Shown here one piece after another: positions 3,001-64,000 of a stretch of DNA of 64,000 nucleotides (position 1 is the stretch's first letter; each line of letters begins with the position of its first letter). This DNA is from an uncultured Clostridia bacterium (lineage in GTDB: Bacteria > Bacillota > Clostridia > Christensenellales > CAG-314). The stretch covers positions 423 through 64,422 of the forward strand of contig CANQGO010000005.1 of assembly GCA_947623225.1 (NCBI GenBank), in the 5' to 3' direction. The position numbers and the translations under genes were made by a program. The notes below the pieces were generated by a model. That model was given only the letters and a program-made list of their open reading frames with translations. It had not been told where the DNA came from and ran no database searches.

Positions 3001-4026
3001 CGCGTGGGCATGAGCGGCTATACCGCCGCCGATCTGGACATAGAGGACCGCTCCTGCGCCGTCAATGTCATATTCGCCGACAGTACGACTTCGAGCATGG
3101 ACGCGCTGTGCGAGCTGATAGTGGGCTTTGACGAGGCGGGTCCGGTACGTCTTAAGGACGTCCTCACTCCCGCAGCGGACGGGAAACTGTACAGCACCGA
3201 CACGGTGGCGGCAGCCATAGAAAAGGAGAACGGAAGGTATACCACGAGCATAGACCTCGAGATATACGGCACAGACAGCGGCAGCGCGGGCAAGGTCATC
3301 AAGCGCGCCGTGCACGAGGCGTTGTCCGGCTATCCCGACGTGGAGTATGAGGAGGGCGGCGTGTCCAGCTACCTCAATGACGCATTCGACGGGCTGGTGG
3401 TGTCGCTGATCGCGGCATTCGTACTGCTGTACAGCGTGATGGCGTGCCAGTTCGAGAGTCTGTCCAAGCCCTTTGTGGTCATCATGTCCATACCCTTCAG
3501 CTTCACGGGCGGTTTCCTCGCGCTGGCTATAACGGGAATGACGCTGAACGTAGTCTCCTTCGTGGGGCTTATAATGCTGATGGGCGTCATAGTCAACGGA
3601 GCCATAGTCATGATAGACAAGATCAATATGCTCATAGCCGAGGGCATGTCGCCGCAGGAGGCGGTGATAGAGGGTTGCAAGACGCGTCTGCGCCCCATCC
3701 TCATGACCACCCTGACCACGGTGCTGGCTCTGGTGCCTCTCGCACTCGGTCTCGGGCGCGGCGGCGAACTCATGCAGCCCATGGGCATAGTGGTGCTGGG
3801 CGGCTTGCTGCTGGGCACCCTCGTCACACTGGTGCTCATCCCCTGCTTCTACTGCCTTATCAAGCGTATCCGCTTCGACAAGCGCGCCCTGCCTGCCGCA
3901 GGTGAGCAAGAGGAAGGCGCAGGCGAAGAGAATAGCGACGAGCAAATTACAGACAATAGCGACATAGACAGTACGGATACCGACGCCGCAGAAGGTGCGG
4001 AGCCGAAGGATCCGTCGGAGGAATGA
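1..4026 (+). CDS. RND-family (AcrB/SwrC-like) efflux permease, 1341 aa, with an enlarged first extracytoplasmic loop and an acidic C-terminal tail
   Basis: The N-terminus MNSLIKTSIKRSVTVCVLVIVLMAVGVLATLDMSTNLLPNIRLPMLGISVVYPGASA matches RND TM1 plus the start of the porter domain. The protein has a 12-TM layout with two large loops and a GIGMLVDNSIVVLE TM4-type motif. The ATG sits at position 1, so the true 5' end is at or just beyond the window edge. Confidence 0.85.
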   Translation: MNSLIKTSIKRSVTVCVLVIVLMAVGVLATLDMSTNLLPNIRLPMLGISVVYPGASARSVEEGVTAKLEQALQTVPGIKELSTTSYDNVAVAVLTFDYGTDIDEKISAIEDSFDSVAFPDGCEEPDFVKIDMNGTATATVALYNSSGDVETLTADAESLAAKLSGIEGVGSVSVLGAQEHEVRITALEGLDISALLIVQALQNENLDIPLGSIMQDGTTVSVRNATDADSVYDIMRLPVRLDLGSALLSRLDGAKSMLTSLEECTLDEFKQNVLSPLFTLRMILPLYASMSDAEVAAALQSNPIIPQSSKSLISASLIHMLRQPDCYMAADSGKPEGPDNISPDCTLGKLLAVKSAHVDDEGAPLYANGTPLTVVDGKRMSGTFYVDPYGYLMDEEGHAVDEEGHRVTLNEQEAAARYARYGAYTVFTDQETASLCDILSLGDNLGVSVTSDLVRLVRLCDFGGSTDGSADGSVVYPDSITVPLTVVGRVEYVTERAAYAEYNGLAAVTVEVYAVADANTTQVVDSVKNVLARSDVKSNVLLLDDKAEFITDSISNVLSSIIIGGVLAVLVIYLFVRRIGSSLVVSITMPLSVLTALAGLWIMNISLNLVSLGGLAVGIGMLVDNSIVVLESITKRRDRGESVYDACLNGTKEVAGSLFASTLTNVCVFFPILFARGLTREIFYDLVWAVLFSIVMSLIVAITVIPSLYHLIYRKGPRKRFRKNADGTYTQLSSYEDNEPRERINNRNDKSTERRRRFKEKADRLRARLHSGATISKMESGYGKILSKVLTKRVLVCVLALVLFGSSVALVFTTGTEFLPSVDKGVIEVDIDFDTAADIEVANAASKQAADVIREHYGNKLEYVSLTVGKQGLLAMSNSGVIRIQTTKQLKTSETVQEIRDLLAEQNIQAKSVTVREMDGVVAEVTGGMSGQSVTLLCDDQATLREAAAKVRDALLKADPEHIVSAVDNTPALNTEYSFTFDRTKCIERGVDYSTAVMLLRVGMSGYTAADLDIEDRSCAVNVIFADSTTSSMDALCELIVGFDEAGPVRLKDVLTPAADGKLYSTDTVAAAIEKENGRYTTSIDLEIYGTDSGSAGKVIKRAVHEALSGYPDVEYEEGGVSSYLNDAFDGLVVSLIAAFVLLYSVMACQFESLSKPFVVIMSIPFSFTGGFLALAITGMTLNVVSFVGLIMLMGVIVNGAIVMIDKINMLIAEGMSPQEAVIEGCKTRLRPILMTTLTTVLALVPLALGLGRGGELMQPMGIVVLGGLLLGTLVTLVLIPCFYCLIKRIRFDKRALPAAGEQEEGAGEENSDEQITDNSDIDSTDTDAAEGAEPKDPSEE

Positions 4027-49390: not shown

Positions 49391-49507
49391 AAGTGTATAT
49401 AGTTTACTACCACGACAATAATATGTCAACAAACCGAGCACGGACACTCGGTCAACACTTGCAAGAGGTACTCATATGTGGTATAATCTTGCCATACGGA
49501 GGCGCAA

Positions 49508-49948
49508 GTGAAAGCGGTCATACAGAGAGTAAGCGGTGCGACATTGACGGCGGAGGGACGAGAAGTATCCCGCATAGGCAACGGATTGGTGGTGTTTTTC
49601 TGCGTGGAGCGGGAGGATCCCGAGCCGCTGTGTGCGCGTTTCGCGGACAAGTTGGCAAAGTTGCGTATATTCGAGGACGGCGCAGGCAAGATGAACCTGT
49701 CCGTGACGGACGTGGGTGGCGAGGTGCTGCTGGTGTCTCAGTTCACGCTGGCGGCGGATCTGCGTCACGGCAACAGACCGAGTTTCACGGAGGCAGAGCA
49801 GCCGGAGCGTGCGAAGGAATTGTACCTCAGGACGGCGGACCTGCTGCGCGACAGGGGCATACCTACGCAGTTGGGCATATTCGGCGCGGATATGACGGTG
49901 TCCCAGCACAATGCCGGTCCCGTCACCGTGATCTGGGAGGAAAGATGA
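49508..49948 (+). CDS. dtd: D-aminoacyl-tRNA deacylase
   Basis: MKAVIQRV...LLVSQFTL..D...GNRPSF, with C-terminal NAGPVT. GTG start. Confidence 0.9.
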   Translation: MKAVIQRVSGATLTAEGREVSRIGNGLVVFFCVEREDPEPLCARFADKLAKLRIFEDGAGKMNLSVTDVGGEVLLVSQFTLAADLRHGNRPSFTEAEQPERAKELYLRTADLLRDRGIPTQLGIFGADMTVSQHNAGPVTVIWEER

Positions 49949-51138
49949 AGAGTCTCAGACAGTTATATAAGATAGGAGTAGGTCCTTCTTCGTCCCATAC
50001 TATGGGACCGGTGAAGGCTACGGAGATGTTTCTCGCCCGGCACGGCGACTGCGACAGTTATACGGTGACGCTCATGGGCTCTCTCGCCATGACGGGAGAG
50101 GGGCACGGCACGGACGTGGCGATCAGGCGCGCCTTCGGCGACAGAGACGTGACGGTAGTGTTCGACAGACAGACCAAGTGCGTCCATCCCAATACCATGG
50201 AGTTCGTGGGCTACAAGCAGGGGCAGGAACCGGTGCGTATGCAGATATTCAGCATCGGCGGCGGAGACATACTGGTCGCCGGAGACAATCCCGTCGAGGG
50301 CGAGGAAGTGTATCCCGAGAATACATTCGAGCAGATCAAGTCCCGTTGCAACAGCGAAGGCATACGCCTGTGGCAGTACGCCATAGAGCAGGAAGGCGAG
50401 GGTATCCTCGAGTATATGTACGCTATATGGCAGGTCATGCAGCGGTGTGTGGCGGAGGGACTGGACGCAGAAGGAGTACTGCCCGGCGGACTGAACGTAC
50501 AGCGTCGCGCGCGCAAGTTGCTCAACGAGCAAAACGATATCACCCGCCATACGCGCCGTGACAGGATAGTGGCGGCGTACGCCTTTGCGGTAGGCGAGCA
50601 GAACGCTGCCGGCGGAGTGGTGGTGACCGCGCCCACGTGCGGCGCAAGCGGAGTGCTGCCGGCGGTATTGGTGTATGCCAAGCAGCAGCAGGACTACACC
50701 GACGAGCAGATATGCCGCGCCTTGCTCACGGCAGGTATAGTGGGCAATGTAGTCAAGACCAACGCCTCCATCTCCGGTGCGGAGTGCGGCTGTCAGGCGG
50801 AGATAGGCACGGCAGGCTCTATGGCTGCCGCCGCTCTGGCGGAGTTGTACGGTATGACGCTCGACGAGATAGAGTACAGCGCGGAAGTGGCACTCGAGCA
50901 CCAACTGGGTCTCACATGCGACCCCGTGAACGGTCTGGTGCAGATACCCTGCATAGAGCGCAATGCCGTCTGTGCCATGCGCGCCATCAACGCCGTCAGT
51001 CTCGCCACATTCCTTGCGGACAGCCGCAAGATCAGTTTCGACACGGTAGTACGCGTCATGTACGAGACGGGCAGGGATATATCGGAAAAGTACCGCGAGA
51101 CGTCGGTGGGCGGACTCGCCAAAATGTACACCAAATAA
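49945..51138 (+). CDS. sdaA: L-serine ammonia-lyase, iron-sulfur dependent, single chain
   Basis: MKSLRQLYKIGVGPSSSHTMGP and TAPTCGASGVLPAV. The ATG overlaps the dtd stop. Confidence 0.88.
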   Translation: MKSLRQLYKIGVGPSSSHTMGPVKATEMFLARHGDCDSYTVTLMGSLAMTGEGHGTDVAIRRAFGDRDVTVVFDRQTKCVHPNTMEFVGYKQGQEPVRMQIFSIGGGDILVAGDNPVEGEEVYPENTFEQIKSRCNSEGIRLWQYAIEQEGEGILEYMYAIWQVMQRCVAEGLDAEGVLPGGLNVQRRARKLLNEQNDITRHTRRDRIVAAYAFAVGEQNAAGGVVVTAPTCGASGVLPAVLVYAKQQQDYTDEQICRALLTAGIVGNVVKTNASISGAECGCQAEIGTAGSMAAAALAELYGMTLDEIEYSAEVALEHQLGLTCDPVNGLVQIPCIERNAVCAMRAINAVSLATFLADSRKISFDTVVRVMYETGRDISEKYRETSVGGLAKMYTK

Positions 51139-51215: not shown

Positions 51216-53021
51216 ATGACACAACAGAGAAAAGTCAGACTGACATTGTCCATCATAGTGTTGGCGGCACTCCTGCTCGCCGTGGCAATGCCTTTTGCTC
51301 TGAAAACTTCTGCCGCGGACGCCGCACCTGTATTGGCGGATACGTCTGCAACAAATACGTACTACAGCGGCAATTACTACAACAATCTGAATACCAACCT
51401 GACGGGCACGGCATTCAGGACGGAATTGTACAATTTGATATCCAATCCGCATAAGAATTCTACTTATGACGGATTGAAAACGGTATACAAGACATCCGAC
51501 GCGGACCCCAACAGAAACGGCAATATATTGTGGTTCTATACCGGTACGTCCACGTCCTACAACGGAAGTATGGGCAGTTCCGCAGGGACAACGAATCGTG
51601 AACACGTATGGCCCAAAAGAGGGGGCAAAGCCTTCACTCCCATAGAATCGGAAGCAGGCAGCGACGCTCACCATCTTCGCCCGACGGATGCGACGCTGAA
51701 TAGTACTCGCGGCGAAAAAGATTTCGACGAAGTGCCTCAGACCTCTTCGAATATAGTGTCCGAAGCCGGCAAGAAAAACTACGGCTCTTCTCCGGACGGA
51801 CTTTGCTATTCTACCAGTACGTCGTTCTATCCCGCCAAAGGCTATCGCGGAGCGACGGCGCGCATTTTGTTCTATGTGCAGGTGCGCTGGGGAGACAAAA
51901 ACAGTTTGCGATTTGTAGACACGGTGGGCACCTCCGGCAAGACGCTGGGCAAGATATCCACTTTGCTCAAGTGGCACCTGGAGGAGCCGCCTACAGAGGA
52001 GGAGATACGCCGCAACGAAGTGGTATTCGGCTTACAAAATAACCGCAACCCCTTCATAGATCACCCGGAGTATGCCGAGATGATATACTGCTACGACGGT
52101 CAGACTTACAACAACGCGCTCAAGGCGGTCGTGGAGTCACACGGCGGCGGATATATGAGCGGTACGCCCGTAGTGCCGCCGACGCCGGATGAGACGCCGA
52201 CGCAGTTGACGTTGTCGGCAAGTTCGCTCAGTCTGAAAGTGGGCGAGACCTCGCAGCCGATAACGGTATCGGCATTGCCGCAGGGCGCGAGCAACAGCGT
52301 GGTATGGGGCACGAGCGACAACAGCGTCGCCACCGTCAACAACGGCGCAGTGACTGCCGTGGGCGCAGGTACTGCCACCATCACGGCGGTAAGCGTACTG
52401 GACGAGAATGTGAAGGCAAGCCTTACGGTGACGGTGACGCAGGCGGAAGCACCGCCCGTTGTCATAGAAAAGTTGGAGATCTTTCCTTCTTCGCTATCCA
52501 TGACGCAGGGAGGTACGCGGCAACTCTCGGTGCAGGTGACGCCCGAGAGGGCGAGCACCGCAGTCACCTGGAGCAGTACGCAGCCCGACGTGGCTACGGT
52601 ATCGGCAAGCGGACTGGTCACGGCGGTGAAGGAAGGGGAGACTGTGATCACCGCGACGTCGGTGGCGGATCCCAACGTGTCTGCCAGCGTCAAGGTGAAA
52701 GTAGTGTCGCAGGCGGTGAATACGGAGACGTTCCGCTCGGCGATGGCGTCATACGGCGTGGCGCAGACATTGGAAGATAAGTATAACGCGCTGCAACGGG
52801 CGATAGAAGCCTACGGCAATATGGACGAAGCCTCCAAGGCTACGGTGACGGCGGAGCATGAGCAGATGATAGAAGCCGTCGAGAAGTTCAACGGCAGCGT
52901 GGGGATATACAACAACGAGATATACAACGCTGCACAGTTTGCTTCTCAGACGACGGCGTTGAGCATATCCGCTGTACTGCTGGCGATAGTCGCCATAGTA
53001 GGCAAGGCACTGGGGAGGTGA
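51216..53021 (+). CDS. secreted endonuclease I-family nuclease fused to two Big_2 Ig-like domains, with a C-terminal TM anchor
   Basis: Signal peptide, then NREHVWPK, DAHHLRPTD, NSTRGEKDF and NRNPFIDHPE (Endonuclease_1 motifs). Two Big_2-like repeats follow (VWGTSDNSVATV..GTATITA and VTWSSTQPDVATV..GETVITA). The terminal helix is ALSISAVLLAIVAIVGKALG. Confidence 0.8.
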   Translation: MTQQRKVRLTLSIIVLAALLLAVAMPFALKTSAADAAPVLADTSATNTYYSGNYYNNLNTNLTGTAFRTELYNLISNPHKNSTYDGLKTVYKTSDADPNRNGNILWFYTGTSTSYNGSMGSSAGTTNREHVWPKRGGKAFTPIESEAGSDAHHLRPTDATLNSTRGEKDFDEVPQTSSNIVSEAGKKNYGSSPDGLCYSTSTSFYPAKGYRGATARILFYVQVRWGDKNSLRFVDTVGTSGKTLGKISTLLKWHLEEPPTEEEIRRNEVVFGLQNNRNPFIDHPEYAEMIYCYDGQTYNNALKAVVESHGGGYMSGTPVVPPTPDETPTQLTLSASSLSLKVGETSQPITVSALPQGASNSVVWGTSDNSVATVNNGAVTAVGAGTATITAVSVLDENVKASLTVTVTQAEAPPVVIEKLEIFPSSLSMTQGGTRQLSVQVTPERASTAVTWSSTQPDVATVSASGLVTAVKEGETVITATSVADPNVSASVKVKVVSQAVNTETFRSAMASYGVAQTLEDKYNALQRAIEAYGNMDEASKATVTAEHEQMIEAVEKFNGSVGIYNNEIYNAAQFASQTTALSISAVLLAIVAIVGKALGR

Positions 53022-53025
53022 CGTG

Positions 53026-53625
53026 ATGAAGAAGATATATATATTGCTTGTCGCAGTCATACTCACGCTGACGCTGGTGTGCGCGGCGGCATGCGAGTCC
53101 GAAGAACTCACGGAGCAGATCAACGAAGCACTCAAAAAAGACTACACTTCCGTCACGGTGAATACCGTCGTGAAGATGGAAAGTTACACGTTGAACGGCG
53201 TGTACAATATCCGCTATGACGGAGATTCCGCCACGGTGGAGTATACATTTGACAAATTCAACACGCTGGACCCGAACGGGGACAACAGCGACTCCCTGAT
53301 ATCCACCGTATCCGGCACGGCGTCCGTGGTGGACGGCAAGATAGTCGGAGAGGACGTCGACCTCAATGCCGGTGTGCTGGCATATACGGGGTTCAGCTTC
53401 AAAAAGAATTTTCTCAAAGTGACCAACGACTCCAGGACGGTGCTGAACGCTCAGGTGCTCAACCCGAAGGCATTCGTAGGCAACAACGACTTCGGCGGCA
53501 CGGATATGACCGTCAGCGTCATCTGCGGCGGCGGTATCTTGCAAAAACTTGCCGTGGAGTACACATCCGTACAGGGCGCGAACGTCTCCGTGACCTACCT
53601 GTTCCAAACCGACTCTGCAAATTAA
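53026..53625 (+). CDS. lipoprotein, unknown function
   Basis: Lipobox MKKIYILLVAVILTLTLVCAAAC. It directly follows the nuclease gene. Confidence 0.7.
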   Translation: MKKIYILLVAVILTLTLVCAAACESEELTEQINEALKKDYTSVTVNTVVKMESYTLNGVYNIRYDGDSATVEYTFDKFNTLDPNGDNSDSLISTVSGTASVVDGKIVGEDVDLNAGVLAYTGFSFKKNFLKVTNDSRTVLNAQVLNPKAFVGNNDFGGTDMTVSVICGGGILQKLAVEYTSVQGANVSVTYLFQTDSAN

Positions 53626-53653
53626 CTTTTGCGCCTATTATATTGTTACAGAT

Positions 53654-53686
53654 CGTCCCCGAAGGATATCGGGGACGGTTTTTTTT
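53654..53686 (+). terminator. rho-independent terminator
   Basis: CGTCCCCGA, loop AGGATA, TCGGGGACG, then GTTTTTTTT. Confidence 0.85.
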
Positions 53687-53811
53687 GTTTTTTTATATTT
53701 ATATATAATATATCTACGATTTTTCTTTGAAAATTTACCTAAAATTTACTTGACGCGGTTACAATCATCTACAAGAGTGAAATTTCAGCCCAAAACAAAA
53801 GGAAATCAACT

Positions 53812-56800
53812 ATGCCGAAATTCAAAATAATATGTTTTGTAGTAGCCGCGATCATGGCGGCGGTAGGCACGATGCTGGTATTGAAGAACCTCAATAACGA
53901 CTTCGTGCCGCCGGACAAAGTAGTCTCGACGGACATGAATACCTATCTGGACAGGACGGAGGATATGGATATATCCGACCGTACTCGTGACGCACGCGAA
54001 TTTTTGTTCGTGGCGCACAAGATACTGCTGCAGCGTCCCGCCTTCAAGGGCGTATCCAGCGGAACGTCCACTGCTATGGGCGGTATCGAGCAGAGCGTAT
54101 TGAATACTCGCGTGGTTTTGGGTGAATTCGGCAACAAGCGCGTATTTAAGGAAATGGTGACCAAGGGCATAGTCAGCAACGCTTACCAACTGTATCTGGT
54201 AGGACTGGGCGAAACGGGCAACTACATATACCGCGGATTCGACAGAGTACGCGAGATAGACAACGTGGAGTGGAGCGGACAGGCTCAGCCGCTGTCCATG
54301 CAGGCATTTTACAACAGGTTCGGTCATCGCTCGGATAAGCTGACCAGCTACATACTGAACTGGGACACCGTTACCGACGGAGAGTTCGTGGAAGAGAAGG
54401 ACGGTCTGTACACATTCCTGTACAACCTCGACACTGAGACGGCACCGGCGGATCTGCGCTACGAGATGGTGACCAACGGCAATCTGGCTGACTTCCCCAA
54501 ATTTACCAAGTGCCGCATATACGTCACTATGGACGCCGACTTCAATATCCGTTCTCTGCGCACGGACTGCGCTTACCAAGCCACTACGATGGGTATCAAC
54601 GCACCCTGTGCGGAGGATATCACCGAGGTCATAGAGGACTACGAGGGAGATCTGCCCTATACGGACTTCTTCTCGGCGTATCTCGGTCAGGTGGGCGGCA
54701 ATGACATACAGAGCGATCCCACCGCGCTGAATATGCTTATGGATATGTTCGCGCCGTATCTCGGCGGTGAAGAGCTGAGAGCGTATATGACCGTCACGAA
54801 GGAGGGCGAAGCCGTCACCGACGCGCTCATCTCCCTGTCCGGACTGGATATAAGCGACCTGTCCAAGTTGACGGTGGATATGCGCTTGGGCGAGCTGAAC
54901 GTCTGCTACAAGCACGGCGAAGGCAAGATATTGGTCAATTGGCAAGACTTCAACGGCAGCGCGACGGTGGATGGTATCATGCAACTGGTCGAGGCGTTCT
55001 CTTCGCTCGGGGAGCCGCAAGCCCTCTCGGAGAGTGCTATGCCCGAGATAGACTTGGGCGCATTGCTGGAGGGGCTGACTTTCAGTACGGAAGGCAATAT
55101 ATGCACGGTGGACTTGCCTGTATCGCTCGAGCAGCTCATCGGCGTGGATATGCAGGTGAACGCTCGCTTCACGGGAGTGCTGCAGGGCGATAAGTATGTA
55201 TTCGACCACGCGGATATAAGTATCAACGATACCGATATACACATATCTCTGCGTGAGTGGACTCCGACGGTCATAGACGGCAACGCGCCCGAGATATTGG
55301 GACTTGCCGATCTGATAGTGAACGGCAAACTTGCGCTGAGCGCGGACGTGGAACTGCCGCTGTCCGACAGGACATACCGCGTGCAGGCAAACGTATTGGC
55401 TGATCTGGGCAACGGCTCCGTCAGCGCAGACGCGATACTGGGCAACAACGGCTCCGCGCACATTGTGTATGCGGACAACATAGCGTATCTCGCCCTTGGC
55501 AATGTGAAGGTGCGTCTGGACGTAGACGACACCGATGACCTGCTGACGCTCATAGGTCAATTCGCAGGCGACGGTCTGACGGGCGGAGCATTGCCGCAAG
55601 TAGACGTTGTGGAGATACTGGCACTGCTCGGCGGCTTCCGCGCAGAGGGCGACGGCAGCAACATAACGCTGTCGCTGAGTACGGATGAGCTGACGGTCGG
55701 ACTGGATATAGTCTCCGAACTCGGCAGATGGAATGTACGCTCCGTGACGGTACGGGGCATGGGCATAGAGGCGCAACTGACGCCGTCGGACATGCAGGGT
55801 GAGGTGACTGTACCCGCAGACGGCGACGAATACGCCGACATAACCGAGATGGTAGCCCAATTCGACGGGCCCATACTGGGACTGGCTGTAGCCAACGGCT
55901 ATGCGTTGAATGCGAATGTGGATCTCCTCTCCGACGGCACGGGATACCATCTTGCGGCGCAGGCGTATATAGACGAAGAGGGCAGCGTGAGCGTGAGTGC
56001 TTCCGTAGACAACGGCAATGTCAAGTTGCTGTGTGCGGATGCGGTGTACGCAAAAGACGCGTTGTATCTGCAACTCAACGGTATCAAGGTAGCTTTGCCT
56101 ATATCGGGAAGTGACGGGGACGTGGATATGTCCGCAGCACTTGACCGCCTTGCAGCAGATGAGCAGGTACGGCAGTTGCTGGCAGACAGCGGTATAGTGA
56201 AGATAGTCGCACTTGTCAGACAGTTGGCGGAGTTCGACCCGACGACGCTATTGGACGTGGACTTTGCCGCGCTCATCACCGACTTTGGATACGCTGACGG
56301 CGTACTGTCGCTGGCGGCAGACGGCAGCGCACTCGGGCTGGAGGGCGTGAGCATAGCTTGCTCGCTGTACGTACGCGACGGCGGACTGGCACTGGATATA
56401 GACCGACTGACATTTGCGGATATGACCCTGAGCGGAGACGTAGCGGTGGCTCCGTACAACAGAACGATAGCATTGCCCGACGCGAAGGAGTACGTGACGG
56501 CATTGTATGCCGAGTTGATGGGCGCGCAGGCGTATATCACGGCGGATCTTCTGAATGACGACATATGGGCAAGTGTACATATAGGCAACGAGGATATACT
56601 GCTGCGTTACACGGCAGGCAAGGTATATTTGGTATACGGCGGAGCGCGTATAGCGATAGATACGAAAGAACTGGACACGCTGACGGAGAAGATAGAACAA
56701 CTGACAGGCACTGTCGATACGGCTATGCCGGATATGACGCAACTGCTGGCGGTATTTGCCGCATTGAGCGCGGACTTCACAGGCGAACCGAATATCTCCC

Positions 56801-59800
56801 TCGTATACGGCGATATAGACCTGAGAGTGAACTTCACCGAGCGGGACGGCGCGTTGCTGTTTGAGGAAGTGTGTGTGACATTCGCCATAGAGGGCGAGAC
56901 GTACGAGGCGCGCCTGACGCAGAGCGACAGGCAAGCGGACAAGTTGAGTACGGCGGGCGAATTCGTCAACGGCAATGTGCTTGCAGAGCAACTGATGGAT
57001 ACCGTGCTGACGCTGAAGGACGCCGAAGCGGTGCAATTGACGATAGAGAACGCTCGTCTTACGGTGGGCGGAAGCGTGTATTCGGCGGACGTGACGCTGA
57101 ACACCAACGGCGGCACGGCATTGACGCTGTCACTGCGTGACGGCACCACACGCAAGGCGTTGGTATACGCCGACATACGTATACTGGACGGCGTGGCATA
57201 TATAGACTTCAACGGTATCAGACAGGCTTTGGACCTGACCGAGATACTCCCGTCCGGTCAGACGGATATGCCCGAGGCGGCTGCCGTCATAGCCGTACTG
57301 TACGAGTTGAGAGGTATGAACGGCGTATTGGACAGCATACTGGACGCTGTGGACAGGTTGCCGCGCGACCTTGACGGTATCACATTCTCGCAGATAATAG
57401 AGCATGTGACGCAGACGCAAAACGGTATAAGCGTTCGTCTGGATCCGTCGCAATTTGCACTGGACGGCGTCACGCTGGATATAGGCTTGGGCGTTGCGCC
57501 GACGATAGGCGTGGACGGTTTCACGTTGGGCGAGGTATCGGTATCCTTCGAGGCGGCATTGGATTGCTCGACAGAGCCGGTGACGGAGCCGGAAGGCGAC
57601 TACGGCACGGTGCTGAGCGTGAGTTATGGCGAGATGAGCGGTGCCGTGATGCTGGACCTGTACGGCAAGAGCGTGTACGGTCAGCTGGATATCACGGACA
57701 AGGACACGGTGCTCTTTGAGTACGAAGGCGGCAATGTATACCTGCAATACGGCAATGTGAATGTCGTATGCGGTACCAAGGATATAGGTCTGCTGCTGGC
57801 TGCGGTGAGCAAGTTCGTCACACTGCCCGAATTGCCGCAGACGGACGGCACAGACATATTGCAGACTGTGAAAGAGGTATTTTCGCAGATGGGATATACC
57901 CGTACAGACACGGAAGAAGGCTATATGCTGACCGTGCGCTACGGCGACATGAGCGTATATGTGCGCTTCCGTTGCGACGGCGACAGAGTGAGCGCGGACA
58001 GCATAGAGATACTGCCCGACGGTACACAGACTATCGCGTTGCGCTTCGGCGAGGCGGATATAGCACGGCTGGACACGCAAGCGCGCTTCGACGATATCAC
58101 CCGTATAGTGGATACATTCGCTCAACCCGTTGCGGATATCCTGAACGCAAACAGCTATGGCGCGCACTTCGATATCTCGCTGGACGCGGGCGGCGAATAC
58201 TACGCCGAGGGCGACTTCACGCTGGATGCGCAGGGCAATATATCCGTCGCGGCACTGGTGAAGGATGGCGATATCGATATTTTGGATATAGCTCTGACGC
58301 GCATGGGCGAGTCGGTATATCTCACCGTCAACGGCATAAGCGTGAGGTTCCGTATGCAGGGTACCGAGGGCGCAGACGTGAGCGGTATAGCGCAGCTGCT
58401 GGAGGACGAACGAATACAGGCTGTGCTGAGCGAACACCCGAGTATAGCCGCGCTGATAGACCGGATACAGACCGTCGCGGACAAACTCGCGCATACGGAT
58501 ATCGCTACGATAGCCTTTGCCAAGCTCATAGACTCGTTTGAGTTCGATGACGGCACGGATACATTGACGGTGGGCGTCGACGCGAGCGACCTGTCGCTGG
58601 GCAGATTCACTCTCCGTCTGTGCAACGACGACGGCAACCTCGTGCTGTCGCTGAGCGATCTGGAATTGGCGGATATACGCCTGAGAGAGGCGGAAGTGAC
58701 GCTCATGACGAACGTTGCGGACGTGACGGTGCCGGGCGAGGCGCAGGACTACATACTCAAACTGAACATATCCGGCTTCGGCGCAAATATAGACCTCGCG
58801 GCGGATCTGTACAATATGGACATATGGGCACAGATACACTACACGCACGAGGAGATACAGGGTATCACAATAGACGAGTACGCTTCGGTACTCTTCAGTG
58901 ACAATATCCTGTATGTGGATCTGAACAATATACACCTCAAGTTCCGCACGTCGGGACTTATGGACGCCGTAACGCGTATCATGGCTCTGGCAGGAGCAAG
59001 CGGATCGGTGAATGTCGCCGATATAGACGTGAATGACATCCTGTCTCGCCTGGACTACGAGATAGTGGGCGGCAACCCGCTGTTGACATACGAGAGCAAC
59101 GGATTGACGCTGGCGGTACGCTTCGGACGCGACGAGCAAGGCAGATTGGCATTTGCCGGCGTGACGGGAGACATAGGCGGCGAGAAGATAGAGATAACTC
59201 CGCAGCAGTCTGCCGTGACGGAGCAGCCGTCTACTGAAGGAACGTATACCGACGGCAACGATATGCTGGATACGGTAAGCAACGTGCTGAATATACTGGA
59301 CGTCAAGGCATTGGCAGCTGGCACCAAGGGTATAGATACCAACTTCGACCTGTCGCTGAGCCTCGACGGCAGAGCGTACACGGCGGCACTGCGCGTGCAG
59401 TACTTCGAGGGACTGAAAGTATGGCTGACGCTGTACGACGGAAGCGCGGAAGAGGGTAAACTCATCGCCCAAGGCAGCGTAACGTTCAAGGCGGGCGTAC
59501 TGTACATAGACGTCAACGGTATCCGACAGGCTGTGGATCTGAGGAGTCAAGGCGAGCACGCGGGCGAAGGTGCGACAAGCGTACAGGGCGGCGAGAAGAA
59601 GTTCTCGCTCGATCAACTGAGCGGTGCGCTGGAGCAGTACAGACATATGCATGGCGTCATAGACGCTGTCATAGACCTGGTGCAGGGACTGCCCGAGCGT
59701 CTGCGCTCGATAGATACGGTATCCTCACTTATAGTTGGACTCACGGCGGATGACGGCAAGGTGACATTGGCACTCAACGGACCTGCTATAGGTCTCAAGC

Positions 59801-62800
59801 GCAACGTAGCCGTCACGGTGGGAGTACAGGACGGCAAAGCGACCTACTCCATAGGAGATATAGCACTGCCGAGCGTTACGCCTACGGCGAAGGCAACGTA
59901 TGCGTTGTTCGCCACGCTGTCCGGCAGTATATGCGCCACAAGCGAAGCGGTGAAGGTAGAGGGCAGCGCAGAGGACTATATCACCGACCTGTCCCTCGAC
60001 CTGACTCAGTCCGCGCCCGTCATGACGATGGCGTACGGCGAGAGCGTACAGCAGGTGTTGCACGCGGGCATACGTCTGGATCTGTATCACGGGCTCATAC
60101 ACGCGACCGTCTCCTACGGCGGCAACCAAGTGACGCTGGAGGTGGATATATCCGAAGGCATAGCCGACGGCGTCGTGTATGTATTGGTGGGCAAGGATAT
60201 CTCCTCCGGCACCAAGATGAAGTTCGACCTCGCCGATACGGACAGCCTAATGCAGGCACTGGCTCAGATGGGCATCGAGTTGCCCGAGACGAGCGGCAAC
60301 GGCGGCAGCGTCTCCGATACGGCAAGCAAATTGCTTGGCGGCATACGCTACGAGCGTGCTGTACAGGGCGGCAAGGACGTCGGCTACACGCTGGCACTGA
60401 ATATAGAAGGTATATCAGTGGGCGTGGGCTTCCGTGCCGAGTCGGACGGACTGACGCTGGACGATCTGTCCCTGTACGGCGGTAACTTCCTGCTGAGCAA
60501 GGCGTCTACCGACTACGACGTGACGGAGTTGAACGCGGCAGACAACGCGCAGGCTTACTCCTTCGACGCGGCGGAGGTGCTGGAGGCATTCGCACCCTCT
60601 ATCGGCAGTCTGCTGGCTCCCGAGGGCGGCTACACGCTGCAACTGAATGGCGTCACGCTGGGACTGCTCCGTCAGGGCAATTCCTACTACAAGGTAGACG
60701 GCTCCGTCACGATAGCGGAGGGCAATATACATATCAAATTGACCGCTCACAGCGGCTCGGACAAGTACAACTTCGCAGGCAATGCGTTGCTGAGCGACGT
60801 GGAAGTATGGCTGTATGAGGACGCGCTGTATATCGATCTGGGCGGTATCAGAGTGAGAGTGCCGATGAATAACTCGGACGAGCAGCAGTCGGATACGGAT
60901 ATAGACTCCGTGCTGAACGCGCTCAAGGGCTACAGCGACAGCATAGACGCCGTGGTGACCCTGATCGAGAATATATTAGCTACGGACTTGCACACGCTCA
61001 ACGTGACGGATATGCTGGGTTTGAAGTATGCAGACGGTACGCTCACTGCCAACGTGGACGGCAGCAGGTGGGGTATCAACGAATTCTCGCTGAACGCACA
61101 GCCGCTGGACAAGGGTATATCGATCACTCTGGGCGATCTGGAGAGTGATAACACGCTGTATCTCGGCGGTAATATCACCGTCACGGGCGACGGCAGCGTC
61201 GACAAGCCCATAGGCAATGACTGGGCGACGGATCTGGATATCACCATCGACGATCACGGCGACATGAGCAACAAAGTCCACGTCAGAGTAGACCTGACGG
61301 ACAAAAAAGTATACGCCGAGATAGAGTCTCCCTCTGCGACCGACACCGCCAGACTGTATGTCAAGTACGATATCCCGACCAATACATTGTGGGTAACCGA
61401 CAAGAATAAAGTTAACGCGTCCGTGAATATAGACAGCGTGAGCCGTCTCGTGGACGAGGTGCAGAAGATAGTCGTGCAGGTATCCGGCGACGAGAATGAG
61501 AAACTGCCCGACCTTATAGGCGGCGGCTTGGATCTCAAGGCTATCAAGGACTCTTTGGAGATCACCCACGACACCGCACGCGGCACTCTCGGCGCGTCGC
61601 TCACCGCTATGGGCTTCGGAGTGACTGTGGAGATAGCCAACGGTGCTATCACGGCAAAAGTGAATGTCGGCAGCATATTCCCCGAGACCGCTTTGCACGT
61701 GGGCAGAGCACAGGCGTCTCAGAAGGGTATGGCTGAGGACCTCGACGAGTATATCGGCAAGTACGACAAGCAGGACTCTTCCCGCAAGTTCGTCTCGCTG
61801 GATACCATACTGAACTACTGGTTCTACAAGAACGGCGAGGTGAGCGAGGATCCCGAGGACAACGGCGTCATATACGACCTTGTCAATACCAACGCCTGGA
61901 TGTTTGCCTTCGACGGCGACGTACAGGGCGACAACAGTACGGAACTCACGCTCAACGGTACCACTTACCGCATAGGTCAAGGCTCCTTCCTCTCCTTCTA
62001 CTTCGACAAGGCAGAGACCTCCTTCAGTATGGAGACGCTCATAGACGAATTCGGTCAGAAGGACAAGACGCAGGCGTACAACGATCTGTTCATCCTGCTC
62101 AACTCTCTGCAACTGCGCGCCAAGTTGAATATATACAAGGGCACTACGGACGCAAGCGGCAATATGACCTTCTCCGAGTGCATGCTGCTGGACGTGGCAT
62201 TGCTGCGCGACACGGCAAGCAAGGAAGCGGACAAGAACACTTCCCGCCTGTATGTGAGCTACGATACGAGCAGCAACTCGAGTCGTCCCGGTACCCTGCG
62301 CGCTACTCTCAGCGTGGATACCTTGAAGAACGTCATCCAACTCAAGGACGAACTGGATAAGGTGCTGGGCGGTGCCATCACCGGTATGGTCAACTCCATC
62401 ACCAAGATGATAGCCGACATGCAGCAGAACGCGGCAGAGTTGCGCATTGGCAAACTCGCTCGCCTGTTCAACGAAGTGAGCTACGGCGGCGAGGACCGCA
62501 CGGGCACCAACCTGGTACTGAGGCTCAACGGCTCCGTGCTGGGCGGCGACATAGGCGAGATCGGTCTGGACGTACAACCCTACAACAGCGCGGACGCGAG
62601 CATAGGCAACGGCTTGCAGGTCAACGCTCTGCAGTTCTCCTACGGCGATATCAGCCTGGATCTCCGCAATGTGACGGTCACGGCAAGTCCCTTCACCTCC
62701 ACAGGCGACGGCGACACCGCAGACGCTCGCAAGTATACATACGTGGATTCCCGTATAGACTCCTACCGCACGGACAACCGCGCAGGCGCAGCCACCGGCA

Positions 62801-64000
62801 GCGCGTCGGATATGACCGCCAGCGGCTATGACAGAGCCAACGACCACGGCAGCGATATGACCAACTTCATCAACCTGGACAGCCTGTACGAGTTGGCGTC
62901 CTCCGTCATCATCACCGCATCCAACTACGGTGCCAAGACGCCCGCAGGTACCACACCCGCGCGCGTAGATGAGGGCTATCGCTCCTTCAGGATAGAAGGG
63001 GATCTGACTATTAGTCTGCATTTGTTGGGTAGAGATATACAATTGAGTAATATTCATCTTACTATGTATGCGGATATAGATAAGGACGGAGAGAGTTACT
63101 TCGCTGTCAAGATCCATAGAGATGAGGATAATATCCCATTAGTGGAGGCGTTCGCAGATAAGGGAGGAGACAGTTATCTGACATTCGATACGGTCAGCAA
63201 AACATTCAGTGTGTACAGGGATTCAATTTTGAGTAGGAAAATTTGCCCGGGATGTGGATTATCCATTTACCATGTTGTTAAGGAAAAAAGGAATGGTGAC
63301 TGGCGGGCAGTTGAATATGGTTATTGCGATAATCCCGAATGTAAGGATAGGAATAGTTACAAATTGAGTGCGTGGGCGTCTGCTGATAAACTTGGTTCTG
63401 AGGCGACCGGCATGCCGGATTTCCATGATACCGGTATCACTCCCGCCGAGTTCATGAGCAACTTGATGAGCGGCACGGCAGACGCGAGATGCCCGCGTGG
63501 ATATCTGTTTGAGATGATAAATCTTGGCTCGCTCTTAGGTCAAAAAATTGAAAAAATTATAATGGATCAAATAGGTAAACAGGATAGCAAAGTATTCGGT
63601 GTGGACTATGGTGTGGAGGATATACTGGACAGCGGCGACTCGTACAACTACGGCGACGCCGTGGACAATAGCAACAAACCCGTAACCGACCACAAACAGT
63701 TCCAGGTCAAGGCAAATCTTAAACCTATATCGAGTGCGTTGGGTACGCTGGATATCAAGATACACCACAGCGGCGACTTCAAGCAGTTGATGCAGTATCA
63801 GGACGGCAAGTGGGTGTATGACGAGAGTAAGTTGGCAGAGATCAAACTGGACAGACTGTGCGGCGGATTAAATATAGTTACTTCAACCGGGTTAACGATT
63901 ATACAAATTGATTTCGACCTTACGCACACGACGCCGGGATACGGTACAGCGGCGTATTACGTACAGAACAACGCGGATATGTGGAACTTGAGTATACCGT
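53812..64000 (+). CDS. giant membrane-anchored repeat protein, 5' part only (at least 3,396 codons in the window, no stop reached), no recognised family
   Basis: ATG 53812 follows AAAAGGAAA. I translated the frame by hand to position 63999 and met no stop. Frame checkpoints were confirmed at 54001, 55000, 57001 and 60001, and codon by codon from 63001 to 63999. No fragment of this frame appears in the ORF track, which is consistent with an ORF lacking an in-window stop. The N-terminus MPKFKIICFVVAAIMAAVGTMLVLKNL is a single TM anchor. Confidence 0.85.
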   Translation, partial: MPKFKIICFVVAAIMAAVGTMLVLKNLNNDFVPPDKVVSTDMNTYLDRTEDMDISDRTRDAREFLFVAHKILLQRPAFKGVSSGTSTAMGGIEQSVLNTRVVLGEFGNKRVFKEMVTKGIVSNAYQLYLVGLGETGNYIYRGFDRVREIDNVEWSGQAQPLSMQAFYNRFGHRSDKLTSYILNWDTVTDGEFVEEKDGLYTFLYNLDTETAPADLRYEMVTNGNLADFPKFTKCRIYVTMDADFNIRSLRTDCAYQATTMGINAPCAEDITEVIEDYEGDLPYTDFFSAYLGQVGGNDIQSDPTALNMLMDMFAPYLGGEELRAYMTVTKEGEAVTDALISLSGLDISDLSKLTVDMRLGELNVCYKHGEGKILVNWQDFNGSATVDGIMQLVEAFSSLGEPQALSESAMPEIDLGALLEGLTFSTEGNICTVDLPVSLEQLIGVDMQVNARFTGVLQGDKYVFDHADISINDTDIHISLREWTPTVIDGNAPEILGLADLIVNGKLALSADVELPLSDRTYRVQANVLADLGNGSVSADAILGNNGSAHIVYADNIAYLALGNVKVRLDVDDTDDLLTLIGQFAGDGLTGGALPQVDVVEILALLGGFRAEGDGSNITLSLSTDELTVGLDIVSELGRWNVRSVTVRGMGIEAQLTPSDMQGEVTVPADGDEYADITEMVAQFDGPILGLAVANGYALNANVDLLSDGTGYHLAAQAYIDEEGSVSVSASVDNGNVKLLCADAVYAKDALYLQLNGIKVALPISGSDGDVDMSAALDRLAADEQVRQLLADSGIVKIVALVRQLAEFDPTTLLDVDFAALITDFGYADGVLSLAADGSALGLEGVSIACSLYVRDGGLALDIDRLTFADMTLSGDVAVAPYNRTIALPDAKEYVTALYAELMGAQAYITADLLNDDIWASVHIGNEDILLRYTAGKVYLVYGGARIAIDTKELDTLTEKIEQLTGTVDTAMPDMTQLLAVFAALSADFTGEPNISLVYGDIDLRVNFTERDGALLFEEVCVTFAIEGETYEARLTQSDRQADKLSTAGEFVNGNVLAEQLMDTVLTLKDAEAVQLTIENARLTVGGSVYSADVTLNTNGGTALTLSLRDGTTRKALVYADIRILDGVAYIDFNGIRQALDLTEILPSGQTDMPEAAAVIAVLYELRGMNGVLDSILDAVDRLPRDLDGITFSQIIEHVTQTQNGISVRLDPSQFALDGVTLDIGLGVAPTIGVDGFTLGEVSVSFEAALDCSTEPVTEPEGDYGTVLSVSYGEMSGAVMLDLYGKSVYGQLDITDKDTVLFEYEGGNVYLQYGNVNVVCGTKDIGLLLAAVSKFVTLPELPQTDGTDILQTVKEVFSQMGYTRTDTEEGYMLTVRYGDMSVYVRFRCDGDRVSADSIEILPDGTQTIALRFGEADIARLDTQARFDDITRIVDTFAQPVADILNANSYGAHFDISLDAGGEYYAEGDFTLDAQGNISVAALVKDGDIDILDIALTRMGESVYLTVNGISVRFRMQGTEGADVSGIAQLLEDERIQAVLSEHPSIAALIDRIQTVADKLAHTDIATIAFAKLIDSFEFDDGTDTLTVGVDASDLSLGRFTLRLCNDDGNLVLSLSDLELADIRLREAEVTLMTNVADVTVPGEAQDYILKLNISGFGANIDLAADLYNMDIWAQIHYTHEEIQGITIDEYASVLFSDNILYVDLNNIHLKFRTSGLMDAVTRIMALAGASGSVNVADIDVNDILSRLDYEIVGGNPLLTYESNGLTLAVRFGRDEQGRLAFAGVTGDIGGEKIEITPQQSAVTEQPSTEGTYTDGNDMLDTVSNVLNILDVKALAAGTKGIDTNFDLSLSLDGRAYTAALRVQYFEGLKVWLTLYDGSAEEGKLIAQGSVTFKAGVLYIDVNGIRQAVDLRSQGEHAGEGATSVQGGEKKFSLDQLSGALEQYRHMHGVIDAVIDLVQGLPERLRSIDTVSSLIVGLTADDGKVTLALNGPAIGLKRNVAVTVGVQDGKATYSIGDIALPSVTPTAKATYALFATLSGSICATSEAVKVEGSAEDYITDLSLDLTQSAPVMTMAYGESVQQVLHAGIRLDLYHGLIHATVSYGGNQVTLEVDISEGIADGVVYVLVGKDISSGTKMKFDLADTDSLMQALAQMGIELPETSGNGGSVSDTASKLLGGIRYERAVQGGKDVGYTLALNIEGISVGVGFRAESDGLTLDDLSLYGGNFLLSKASTDYDVTELNAADNAQAYSFDAAEVLEAFAPSIGSLLAPEGGYTLQLNGVTLGLLRQGNSYYKVDGSVTIAEGNIHIKLTAHSGSDKYNFAGNALLSDVEVWLYEDALYIDLGGIRVRVPMNNSDEQQSDTDIDSVLNALKGYSDSIDAVVTLIENILATDLHTLNVTDMLGLKYADGTLTANVDGSRWGINEFSLNAQPLDKGISITLGDLESDNTLYLGGNITVTGDGSVDKPIGNDWATDLDITIDDHGDMSNKVHVRVDLTDKKVYAEIESPSATDTARLYVKYDIPTNTLWVTDKNKVNASVNIDSVSRLVDEVQKIVVQVSGDENEKLPDLIGGGLDLKAIKDSLEITHDTARGTLGASLTAMGFGVTVEIANGAITAKVNVGSIFPETALHVGRAQASQKGMAEDLDEYIGKYDKQDSSRKFVSLDTILNYWFYKNGEVSEDPEDNGVIYDLVNTNAWMFAFDGDVQGDNSTELTLNGTTYRIGQGSFLSFYFDKAETSFSMETLIDEFGQKDKTQAYNDLFILLNSLQLRAKLNIYKGTTDASGNMTFSECMLLDVALLRDTASKEADKNTSRLYVSYDTSSNSSRPGTLRATLSVDTLKNVIQLKDELDKVLGGAITGMVNSITKMIADMQQNAAELRIGKLARLFNEVSYGGEDRTGTNLVLRLNGSVLGGDIGEIGLDVQPYNSADASIGNGLQVNALQFSYGDISLDLRNVTVTASPFTSTGDGDTADARKYTYVDSRIDSYRTDNRAGAATGSASDMTASGYDRANDHGSDMTNFINLDSLYELASSVIITASNYGAKTPAGTTPARVDEGYRSFRIEGDLTISLHLLGRDIQLSNIHLTMYADIDKDGESYFAVKIHRDEDNIPLVEAFADKGGDSYLTFDTVSKTFSVYRDSILSRKICPGCGLSIYHVVKEKRNGDWRAVEYGYCDNPECKDRNSYKLSAWASADKLGSEATGMPDFHDTGITPAEFMSNLMSGTADARCPRGYLFEMINLGSLLGQKIEKIIMDQIGKQDSKVFGVDYGVEDILDSGDSYNYGDAVDNSNKPVTDHKQFQVKANLKPISSALGTLDIKIHHSGDFKQLMQYQDGKWVYDESKLAEIKLDRLCGGLNIVTSTGLTIIQIDFDLTHTTPGYGTAAYYVQNNADMWNLSIP
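54915..61700 (+). repeat. degenerate in-frame tandem protein repeats inside the giant ORF (sub-unit about 190 aa, unit about 380 aa, super-unit about 755 aa)
   Basis: A recurring strand motif, x-Y-[IL]-x-[LFV]-N/G-G-I-x-x-x, appears at 55480, 56059, 56620, 57193, 57733, 58312, 58906, 59497 and 60823. NGIRQA(L/V)DL occurs at 57193 and 59497. ADL(L/Y)N.DIWA..H occurs at 56542 and 58801, 2,259 nt apart. Confidence 0.7.
63244..63342 (+). other. Cys4 zinc-ribbon-like motif encoded inside the giant ORF
   Basis: The sequence CPGC-GLSIYHVVKEKRNGDWRAVEYGY-CDNPEC gives the spacing CxxC-x23-Cx4C. It lies inside the low-GC patch. Confidence 0.45.

Follow-up and report, generated by a model that had tools for sequence, protein, structure and literature searches.

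The 64,000-nucleotide (nt) stretch of an uncultured Clostridia bacterium analysed here (assembly GCA_947623225.1, contig CANQGO010000005.1, positions 423 to 64,422; hereafter the window) ends inside a giant open reading frame (ORF), the 3′ part of which carries a patch of low guanine-plus-cytosine (GC) content around a four-cysteine (Cys4) motif. Our data suggest that this patch is probably a swappable allele of a hypervariable C-terminal segment, diversified by homologous exchange among co-resident species. The main lines of evidence are an alternative allele within the species, which departs from the window sequence at the compositional discontinuity, and signs of recombination between related species over the same segment.

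Allelic replacement at the compositional discontinuity

An earlier inspection of the DNA letters (the sequence-only reading) had described a fall in GC at 63001–63360 and 63541–63600, a second dip at 63841–63900, a reading frame that stays open throughout and a switch to A/T-ending codons, and all of this was reproduced. Counted in 60-nt blocks, GC was 31.7, 41.7, 46.7, 38.3, 40.0 and 41.7 % across 63001–63360, 26.7 % at 63541–63600 and 41.7 % at 63841–63900, compared with 55–63 % in the three blocks directly 5′ of 63001. No stop codon interrupts the frame between 53743 and the end of the window, and the ATG at 53812 is the likely start. Within the patch, ATT provides 7 of the 16 isoleucine codons versus 3 of 185 upstream, and GGC 3 of the 19 glycine codons versus 189 of 284; TTA, AGT, GTT, AAT, GAT and AAA are all commoner than upstream, and GC is lower at the first and second codon positions (GC1 and GC2) as well.

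The deviation was strong at the third codon position (GC3), for which a sliding-window and codon-usage check had been proposed. In 120-codon windows, GC3 averaged 0.715 (standard deviation 0.048) upstream of 62990 and reached its minimum of 0.40 at 62989. The 211-codon block 62980–63610 has a GC3 of 0.445 (z = −6.9 versus all upstream blocks of equal length, the lowest of which reaches 0.626), and the other genes of the window lie at 0.64–0.79. Amino-acid composition was ruled out as the cause, since the patch amino acids combined with the upstream codon usage give an expected GC3 of 0.70 versus 0.36 observed (z = −10). The patch codons fit the usage of family members with 45 % GC about 39 log-likelihood units better than that of their own host (−252 versus −291). 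Penalised segmentation of all 3,396 in-window codons returned a single change-point at 62991/62992, supported by the Bayesian information criterion, at which GC3 falls from 0.715 to 0.521; a more lenient penalty divided the 3′ part into 62992–63624 (GC3 0.44), 63625–63666 (1.0) and 63667–63999 (0.62). A search of Rfam over 62700–64000 at E ≤ 1 gave no match, promoter-like sites were not enriched and terminators were absent, so that neither an RNA nor a promoter embedded in the patch is supported.

The window sequence is present in rabbit-gut metagenomes of several studies, and we compared, sample by sample, the share of its k-mers found for the gene body (60500–62950) and for the patch (63010–63640). 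Four runs of another study, P3, contain much of the gene body (0.73 in X10, 0.69 in X6, 0.63 in X13 and 0.52 in X14) and next to nothing of the patch, its share being listed as 0.03, 0.03 and 0.05 for X10, X6 and X14, respectively. By contrast, samples of studies P1 and P2 contain the patch (1.00 in X1 and 0.59 in X4) in addition to gene-body words. P3 contigs match the window with 0–4 mismatches per contig over 59000–63006 (about 0.4 % divergence) and differ from 63007 on, which places the left breakpoint at 63006/63007, i.e. 15 nt from the GC3 change-point. This shows that intraspecific allelic replacement starts at the compositional discontinuity. Near-identical flanking sequence was tested on the 5′ side, the 3′ end of the P3 gene being diverged up to the window end.

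The low/high alternation 3′ of 62992, described earlier as a mosaic, was weakly supported by composition alone (runs test, p = 0.089), but a block mosaic is clearly visible once the two alleles are compared (Table 1). The pieces of the P3 allele that can be read are also AT-rich, and where they differ from the window by substitution, the change is modestly biased from AT towards GC. In the raw-read run X18 the organism was not present.

Table 1. Coordinates of the giant ORF, its C-terminal module and the blocks distinguished by comparison of the window with the P3 allele
Feature	Position in window	Strand	Description
Giant ORF	53812..63999	+	3,396 codons in window, 3,412 residues in full; one hydrophobic anchor at N-terminus; internal repeats of about 200–750 residues; without Pfam or NCBIfam family
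Conserved C-terminal family module	62872..63999	+	begins INLDSLYEL; beta-rich model (AlphaFold 2; predicted local distance difference test, pLDDT, 71; predicted template modelling score, pTM, 0.69)
Low-GC3 segment	62992..63624	+	GC3 0.44 vs 0.715 upstream; host-unlike codons ATT, TTA, AGT, GGT/GGA, AAT, GAT, AAA
First replaced block	63007..63060	+	54 nt in window, 78 nt in P3 allele
Identical block	63061–63098	+	P3 allele identical to window
Diverged block	63099..63165	+	22 substitutions and 12 extra nt in P3 allele, within aligned 63061–63225
Near-identical block	63166–63225	+	2 substitutions in P3 allele
Unalignable block	63226..63419	+	194 nt in window, with the complete Cys4 motif; 218 nt in P3 allele, the block beginning YRD-DIEKTEP there
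Cys4 motif	63244..63342	+	CPGC-x23-CDNPEC (C3145, C3148, C3172, C3177); probable zinc knuckle/ribbon insert
Similar block	63420–63528	+	about 85 % identity to P3 allele
Third replaced block	63529..63588	+	60–63 nt in window, 72–75 nt in P3 allele; overlaps the 26.7 % GC dip at 63541–63600
Gene remainder	63589 to about 63980	+	about 88–92 % identity; 12-nt deletion in P3 allele at 63882–63911
Second short GC dip	63841..63911	+	12 nt (in ...NIVTSTGLTII...) absent from P3 allele; orthologues 4–5 residues shorter

Proposed exchange between species and its rivals

Six orthologues were aligned to the window over their last 1,400 codons. In all five close species GC3 drops from the bin starting at 62950 (z = −6.0, −8.9, −4.1, −3.2 and −1.7), and when the interval of greatest deviation was sought without supervision, the same segment came out in the window and in the orthologues L008, L007, L006, L005 and L004. 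Considering that the minimum lies at the same place in five other species, the low-GC patch does not represent a one-off event. These same-site dips, together with the AT-rich blocks common to both alleles of the species, rather indicate that low GC is a property of the allele pool, and this also touches the earlier suggestion of a region under different constraints. Among low-GC hosts, L009 has no dip (z = +0.1), L011 and L012 are marginal (z = −2.1 and −1.8), and L010 shows the reverse, with a GC3 of 0.62 in the module versus 0.51 in the rest of the gene. Across ten genes, the GC3 of the module (0.42–0.62) and that of the gene body (0.51–0.72) are uncorrelated (r = −0.11, n = 10). The window genome is the GC-richest host sampled and shows the largest step, and we propose that the step is sharpest here because of this high host GC.

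Phylogenetic incongruence and synonymous divergence also point to exchange. In similarity matrices, the nearest relatives of L006 are L005 and L004 upstream of the patch, and L007 and L008 inside it. At the nucleotide level, L007 and L008 go from about 55 % to 86–91 % identity over window-equivalent 62875–63700, with a lower value again in the tail. The proportion of synonymous differences (pS) of this pair is 0.377 in the tract versus 0.61 upstream, 0.77 in the tail and 0.69 in the cytidine deaminase gene cdd; in their codon-biased ribosomal-protein genes it is 0.42–0.48. L007 and L008 thus share a recombination tract that covers the segment of the window patch. The idea of a recombined module or cassette exchange, as put forward from the sequence, was thus right in kind, given the start of the P3 allele 15 nt from the change-point, the low-pS tract of L007 and L008 and the incongruent position of L006.

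Short stretches of low pS (0.20–0.43 versus 0.6–0.8 around them) were observed elsewhere too, i.e. between L006 and L008 at window-equivalent 62440–62560, and between L006 and L005 at 62920–63040 and 61840–61960, so that mosaicism is not confined to the patch but affects the 3′ third of the gene. In runs X3, X5 and X7, contigs of other species' orthologues match the window only where it is most conserved, at 62839–62891 and 63595–63660, with about 83 % identity. Since such contigs are found in the same rabbit-gut samples, several family members co-reside, and the presence of other species' orthologues in these samples provides the opportunity for exchange.

In the mechanism we propose, homologous recombination would be anchored on conserved blocks that flank and interrupt variable loops, and the segment would be replaced again and again by versions of the orthologous gene from co-resident, mostly lower-GC Clostridia. 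If replacement were faster than amelioration, the segment would keep the composition of the shared pool (GC3 of about 0.42–0.62) whatever the host. The carrier would be an unannotated giant envelope protein of uncultured rabbit-gut Clostridia, anchored in the membrane at its N-terminus, and the variable loops, together with a probable zinc-stabilised knuckle, may be exposed at its distal end as a surface that determines specificity or antigenicity and that would be under diversifying selection by phage, host immunoglobulin A (IgA) or cell–cell recognition.

Several points weigh against this explanation. The read evidence consists of low-depth (2–7×) Logan contigs and not of raw reads, and X1 is the only run with the window allele in which a unitig reaches across the left border. 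Both points, as well as the co-occurrence of other species' orthologues in the same samples, also speak for a metagenomic mis-assembly, in which the gene body of a high-GC species would have been joined to the tail of the orthologue from a co-resident species of lower GC. Such a mis-assembly is nevertheless very improbable. The X1 unitig covering 62809–63058 crosses the left border with 0 mismatches, and the internal borders are spanned by identical unitigs (63301–63649 in X1, 63432–63931 in X2, 63028–63460 in X4, 63405–63660 in X5 and 63501–63687 in X7). The border-spanning runs come from two studies, depth is alike on either side in X1, X2 and X4, and tail and body of the window occur together in two independent studies, P1 and P2. 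Moreover, P3 contigs are identical to the window over 62933–63006 and pass the same point into another tail, which makes the junction a real biological breakpoint. The nucleotide identity of the orthologues at the border is about 40–55 %, and at this level a long shared word on which an assembler could have joined them would be unlikely. The search for chimerism at the patch borders that had been recommended thus argues against an assembly artefact, at the 2–7× depth of these contigs.

Exchange is further weakened by the search for its source, as no donor lineage was found among the sampled orthologues or in the searchable collections; the window allele is synonymously saturated (pS > 0.7) with respect to every sampled orthologue. 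Replacement within a species was not observed in three other species, each compared as one strain pair (L001/L008, L002/L006 and L003/L004), and the P3 allele could be read in pieces only. Surface exposure, zinc binding and diversifying selection are all predictions. Finally, the dip at the same site in six species and the AT-rich blocks shared by both alleles could also reflect a local codon constraint.

Such a local nucleotide or codon constraint is the main rival, albeit an unlikely one on its own. In this view recombination would be incidental; for instance, slow A/T-ending codons conserved as a cluster could pace the co-translational folding of the C-terminal module or its loading with metal. 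The constraint would account for a GC3 minimum that recurs at the equivalent site of six species, the synonymous sites of which are saturated elsewhere, and for the AT-richness of both conspecific alleles in their readable blocks, while a lone ancient import would have ameliorated already. However, the shift is a general one towards A/T-ending codons and not towards the rarest codons of the host (GGT and GGA are used and not GGG, neither CTA nor CGA occurs, and there is a single TCA), and it includes GC1 and GC2. It is also lacking in L009, marginal in L011 and L012 and reversed in L010, and its step lies within 15 nt of a proven intraspecific breakpoint. Constraint and exchange may nonetheless act together.

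The C-terminal module and its cysteine insert

The family to which the patch belongs is a rare one. Only 32 relatives emerged when 1.84 billion cluster representatives were scanned exhaustively with HMMER. DNA was recovered for nine more family members, and those with named records are metagenome-assembled genomes of 'uncultured Clostridia' from the rabbit gut. Other searches added little: a word-indexed protein search with the C-terminal 519 residues gave no match, a four-sequence profile one fragment of 205 residues that was already known, a search of genome contigs no match with the single protein and six loci with the profile, and JGI metagenome contigs no relative. Neither the giant ORF nor the patch had a significant match in Pfam or NCBIfam, a PDB sequence search with the patch gave no match, and a structure search with the model of the C-terminal module found no significant match among solved structures.

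On alignment, the patch was shown to be homologous to a conserved C-terminal module present in all relatives, residue for residue, and not to be an insertion. The conserved blocks of this module in the patch region are ...RSFxIxG..., MYADIDxxGxSYFAVK, GGxSYLxF, FxVxRDS, ...EFxxN..., YLFExLN and KVFGVDYGxEDIL, of which MYADID..SYFAV, GGxSYLxF, YRDS and the later ones can be aligned over 19–22 family members. The last ~130 residues of the protein are its best-conserved part (61–80 % identity among close orthologues). Comparison with orthologues, named in the sequence-only reading both as a check and as a possible refutation, therefore shows that the module as such is ancestral and family-wide, although the segment within it does vary between strains. 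The earlier option of an insertion from a lower-GC donor was not supported in the sense of foreign, non-homologous DNA.

An in-frame, non-homologous insertion that brought in a zinc-ribbon domain, whether mobile element, intein or variable region of a diversity-generating retroelement (DGR), is in our opinion the least credible of the alternatives. It would agree with the sharpness of the compositional step and with the position of the Cys4 motif inside the low-GC part, but the alignment of the patch with the family module extends to either side of the cysteine insert and around it. In addition, no intein, Hint or zinc-ribbon profile of Pfam or NCBIfam matched, the 64 kb contain no second copy of the patch that could serve as a template repeat, and a search of phage records in distant DNA mode gave no match. 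The alleles differ by indels and the replacement of whole blocks, and not by adenine-specific substitutions. An intein was rejected on the missing Hint/intein match and the family homology that continues through the patch. A DGR target was rejected on the lack of a second patch copy in the window (a reverse transcriptase was not searched for) and on the indels and block replacements between alleles. Gene conversion from a silent cassette within the window was rejected on the lack of a second copy.

The Cys4 motif had been quoted correctly, both in its peptide and in its CxxC-x23-Cx4C spacing. In the family alignment it sits in an insert of variable length after RDS/RNS, and in a by-eye tally of the sequences, 19 of the 23 members carry CxxC (often CPxCG or CTxC) with a downstream C/C or C/H pair, while four lack the insert. 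Residues of the insert other than the cysteine and histidine ligands are not conserved, and the retention of the ligands while the rest varies suggests a small metal-stabilised knuckle. From its ligand pattern, the insert is thus a probable metal-stabilised knuckle with predicted zinc binding. By its distribution over the family, the motif is an old variable insert and was not brought in with the patch.

Rubredoxin-like CPxCG knuckles are known from zinc-ribbon and zinc-knuckle inserts. As in these, the first knuckle is of the CPxCG type, and the second Cys/His pair follows 10–25 residues on. Two short strands (residues 135–140 and 143–148) are tentatively modelled between the knuckles. In contrast to them, the second half-site is Cx4C in the window and C...H in many relatives, and the location is predicted to be outside the cytoplasm. 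Good overall, the model is of low confidence across the insert (131–181), with a pLDDT of only 32–54. The zinc ribbon or knuckle proposed earlier is therefore plausible in its ligand pattern, but a zinc-ribbon domain was not recovered when the patch peptide was compared with Pfam, NCBIfam and PDB; the only profile hits were GFA (E = 0.07) and TIGR04139 (E = 0.053), both far below their cut-offs.

The giant protein, its locus and comparable systems

The library protein P0001 matches the C-terminal 1,200 window-encoded residues end to end and has 16 residues more, which gives a full protein of 3,412 residues and a gene end 16 codons past the window; in the contig index, no record of exactly this protein was found. 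The N-terminus, MPKFKIICFVVAAIMAAVGTMLVL, contains the sole hydrophobic helix, as all other 19-residue windows remain below a Kyte-Doolittle value of 1.6, and from this one helix an extracellular location of the protein is inferred. The N-terminal domain (residues 1–420, window 53812–55071) was modelled by AlphaFold with a pLDDT of 67 overall and >80 over most of residues 50–300. Over residues ~60–300 the model weakly resembles the open beta-barrels of LolA, LprF/LprG and Staphylococcus aureus SAOUHSC_02783 (Foldseek probability 0.97–1.00, E = 4e-4 to 3e-3, target template-modelling score 0.38–0.46; 4egd, 4qa8, 1iwl), and no Pfam match to AsmA, TamB or LolA was found in the giant ORF. The top structural matches of the C-terminal module, weak as they are, are also lipid-binding beta-sheet proteins, i.e. 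LolA3, ApoB and vitellogenin. Taken together, the models hint at an elongated envelope protein made of lipid-binding-like modules.

Diverged internal repeats of ~100–230 residues were observed over residues ~528–2444 (window 55400–61000). They pair 528–740 with 1279–1491, 751–929 with 1502–1682 and 2339–2427, and 1004–1217 with 1767–1995, with ...VYLxxNGIxVxF... as a recurring motif, and are visible by self-BLAST in chunks, whole-protein self-BLAST giving the identity match only. Just 5′ of the start codon, at 53620–53800, the window is very AT-rich (23–28 % GC), presumably representing the promoter and leader region of the giant gene.

As far as the contigs reach, the order from 5′ to 3′ is a secreted endonuclease I with Big_2 Ig-like domains (in the window and L010), a lipoprotein-like protein and the giant gene. 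The lipoprotein-like protein has 196–200 residues and no Pfam match, and was found in the window (53023–53625, MKKIYILLVAVILTLTLVCAAAC...), L001, L010 and L011. The spans compared were 51216–63999 in the window, 1–11519 in L010, 2–10726 in L011 and 3–11611 in L001. On the 3′ side of the giant gene, cdd follows in five fetched loci, in either orientation, and rpmG-secE-nusG-rplK come next after it in two of the five. The conservation of this gene order in distant family members suggests a functional envelope module.

Mosaic genes produced by interspecies homologous recombination are well known, such as pbp2x and pbp2b of Streptococcus pneumoniae, and penA and tbpB of Neisseria. Similar to these mosaics, the patch shows diverged blocks in a near-identical gene, sharp breakpoints and a block structure on comparison of alleles. 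The donors of those mosaics are related co-resident species, as we propose for the patch, for which no donor was identified. Unlike them, the patch belongs to an uncharacterised family without an antibiotic or another known selective agent, and its segment is compositionally distinct from the host in several species at once.

Hypervariable surface regions that are exchanged horizontally include the central domain of FliC, the variable regions of pilins and low-GC O-antigen loci. These share with the patch conserved flanks that serve, or here would serve, as recombination anchors, indels in variable loops, an atypical and often lower GC that persists across lineages, and a population-structured distribution of alleles. 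In contrast, the patch lies near the C-terminus of a protein of 3,412 residues and includes a cysteine-ligand knuckle, and the 64-kb window yielded neither a silent cassette nor machinery for phase variation. While mosaic hypervariable surface segments as such are well known, the family that carries this one is new to the annotation libraries searched.

A further comparison is with polymorphic toxin systems (Rhs, CdiA and similar; Zhang et al. 2012, PMC3482391). As in these, a giant protein carries a recombining, compositionally deviant C-terminal region. Unlike in these systems, the extreme C-terminus is conserved here, the protein has no toxin or pre-toxin family in Pfam or NCBIfam, and the gene on the 3′ side, whichever its orientation, is no immunity gene but encodes a cytidine deaminase with the size of a housekeeping enzyme. 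A polymorphic toxin tip was rejected on these grounds, i.e. the conserved C-terminus, the missing toxin domain and cdd as the 3′ gene.

Beyond the exchange reading itself, it is tempting, if speculative, to regard the giant protein as the founder of a new class of fibres or bridges in the Clostridial envelope, made of LolA-like open beta-sheet modules. Its distal zinc-knuckle module would be the specificity determinant (for binding of a host, partner cell or substrate, or as a target of phage or IgA), diversified by cassette exchange between co-resident species. If true, this would be a surface-variation system without a described counterpart in gut Clostridia. The variable module with its probable zinc knuckle is the obvious place to seek the ligand or antigenic specificity of the family. 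The patch marks, at base-pair resolution, a segment hot for recombination within a 10-kb gene that is clonal elsewhere in this uncultured gut bacterium, and a composition signal taken from raw sequence alone correctly predicted a polymorphism at the population level. Segments of this kind also break metagenomic assemblies and blur the tracking of strains.

Two other ORFs of the window deserve mention. In the ORF at 49393–51138, with serine dehydratase domains, a 120-codon block has a GC3 of 0.42 and the Pfam domains begin only at residue 187; probably, the gene is made too long by the listed GTG start, or the ORF takes in an intergenic stretch or a separate gene for the beta chain. The ORF at 1–4026, with AcrB/RND transporter domains, is listed from the first base of the window, and the start shown is maybe not its true start.

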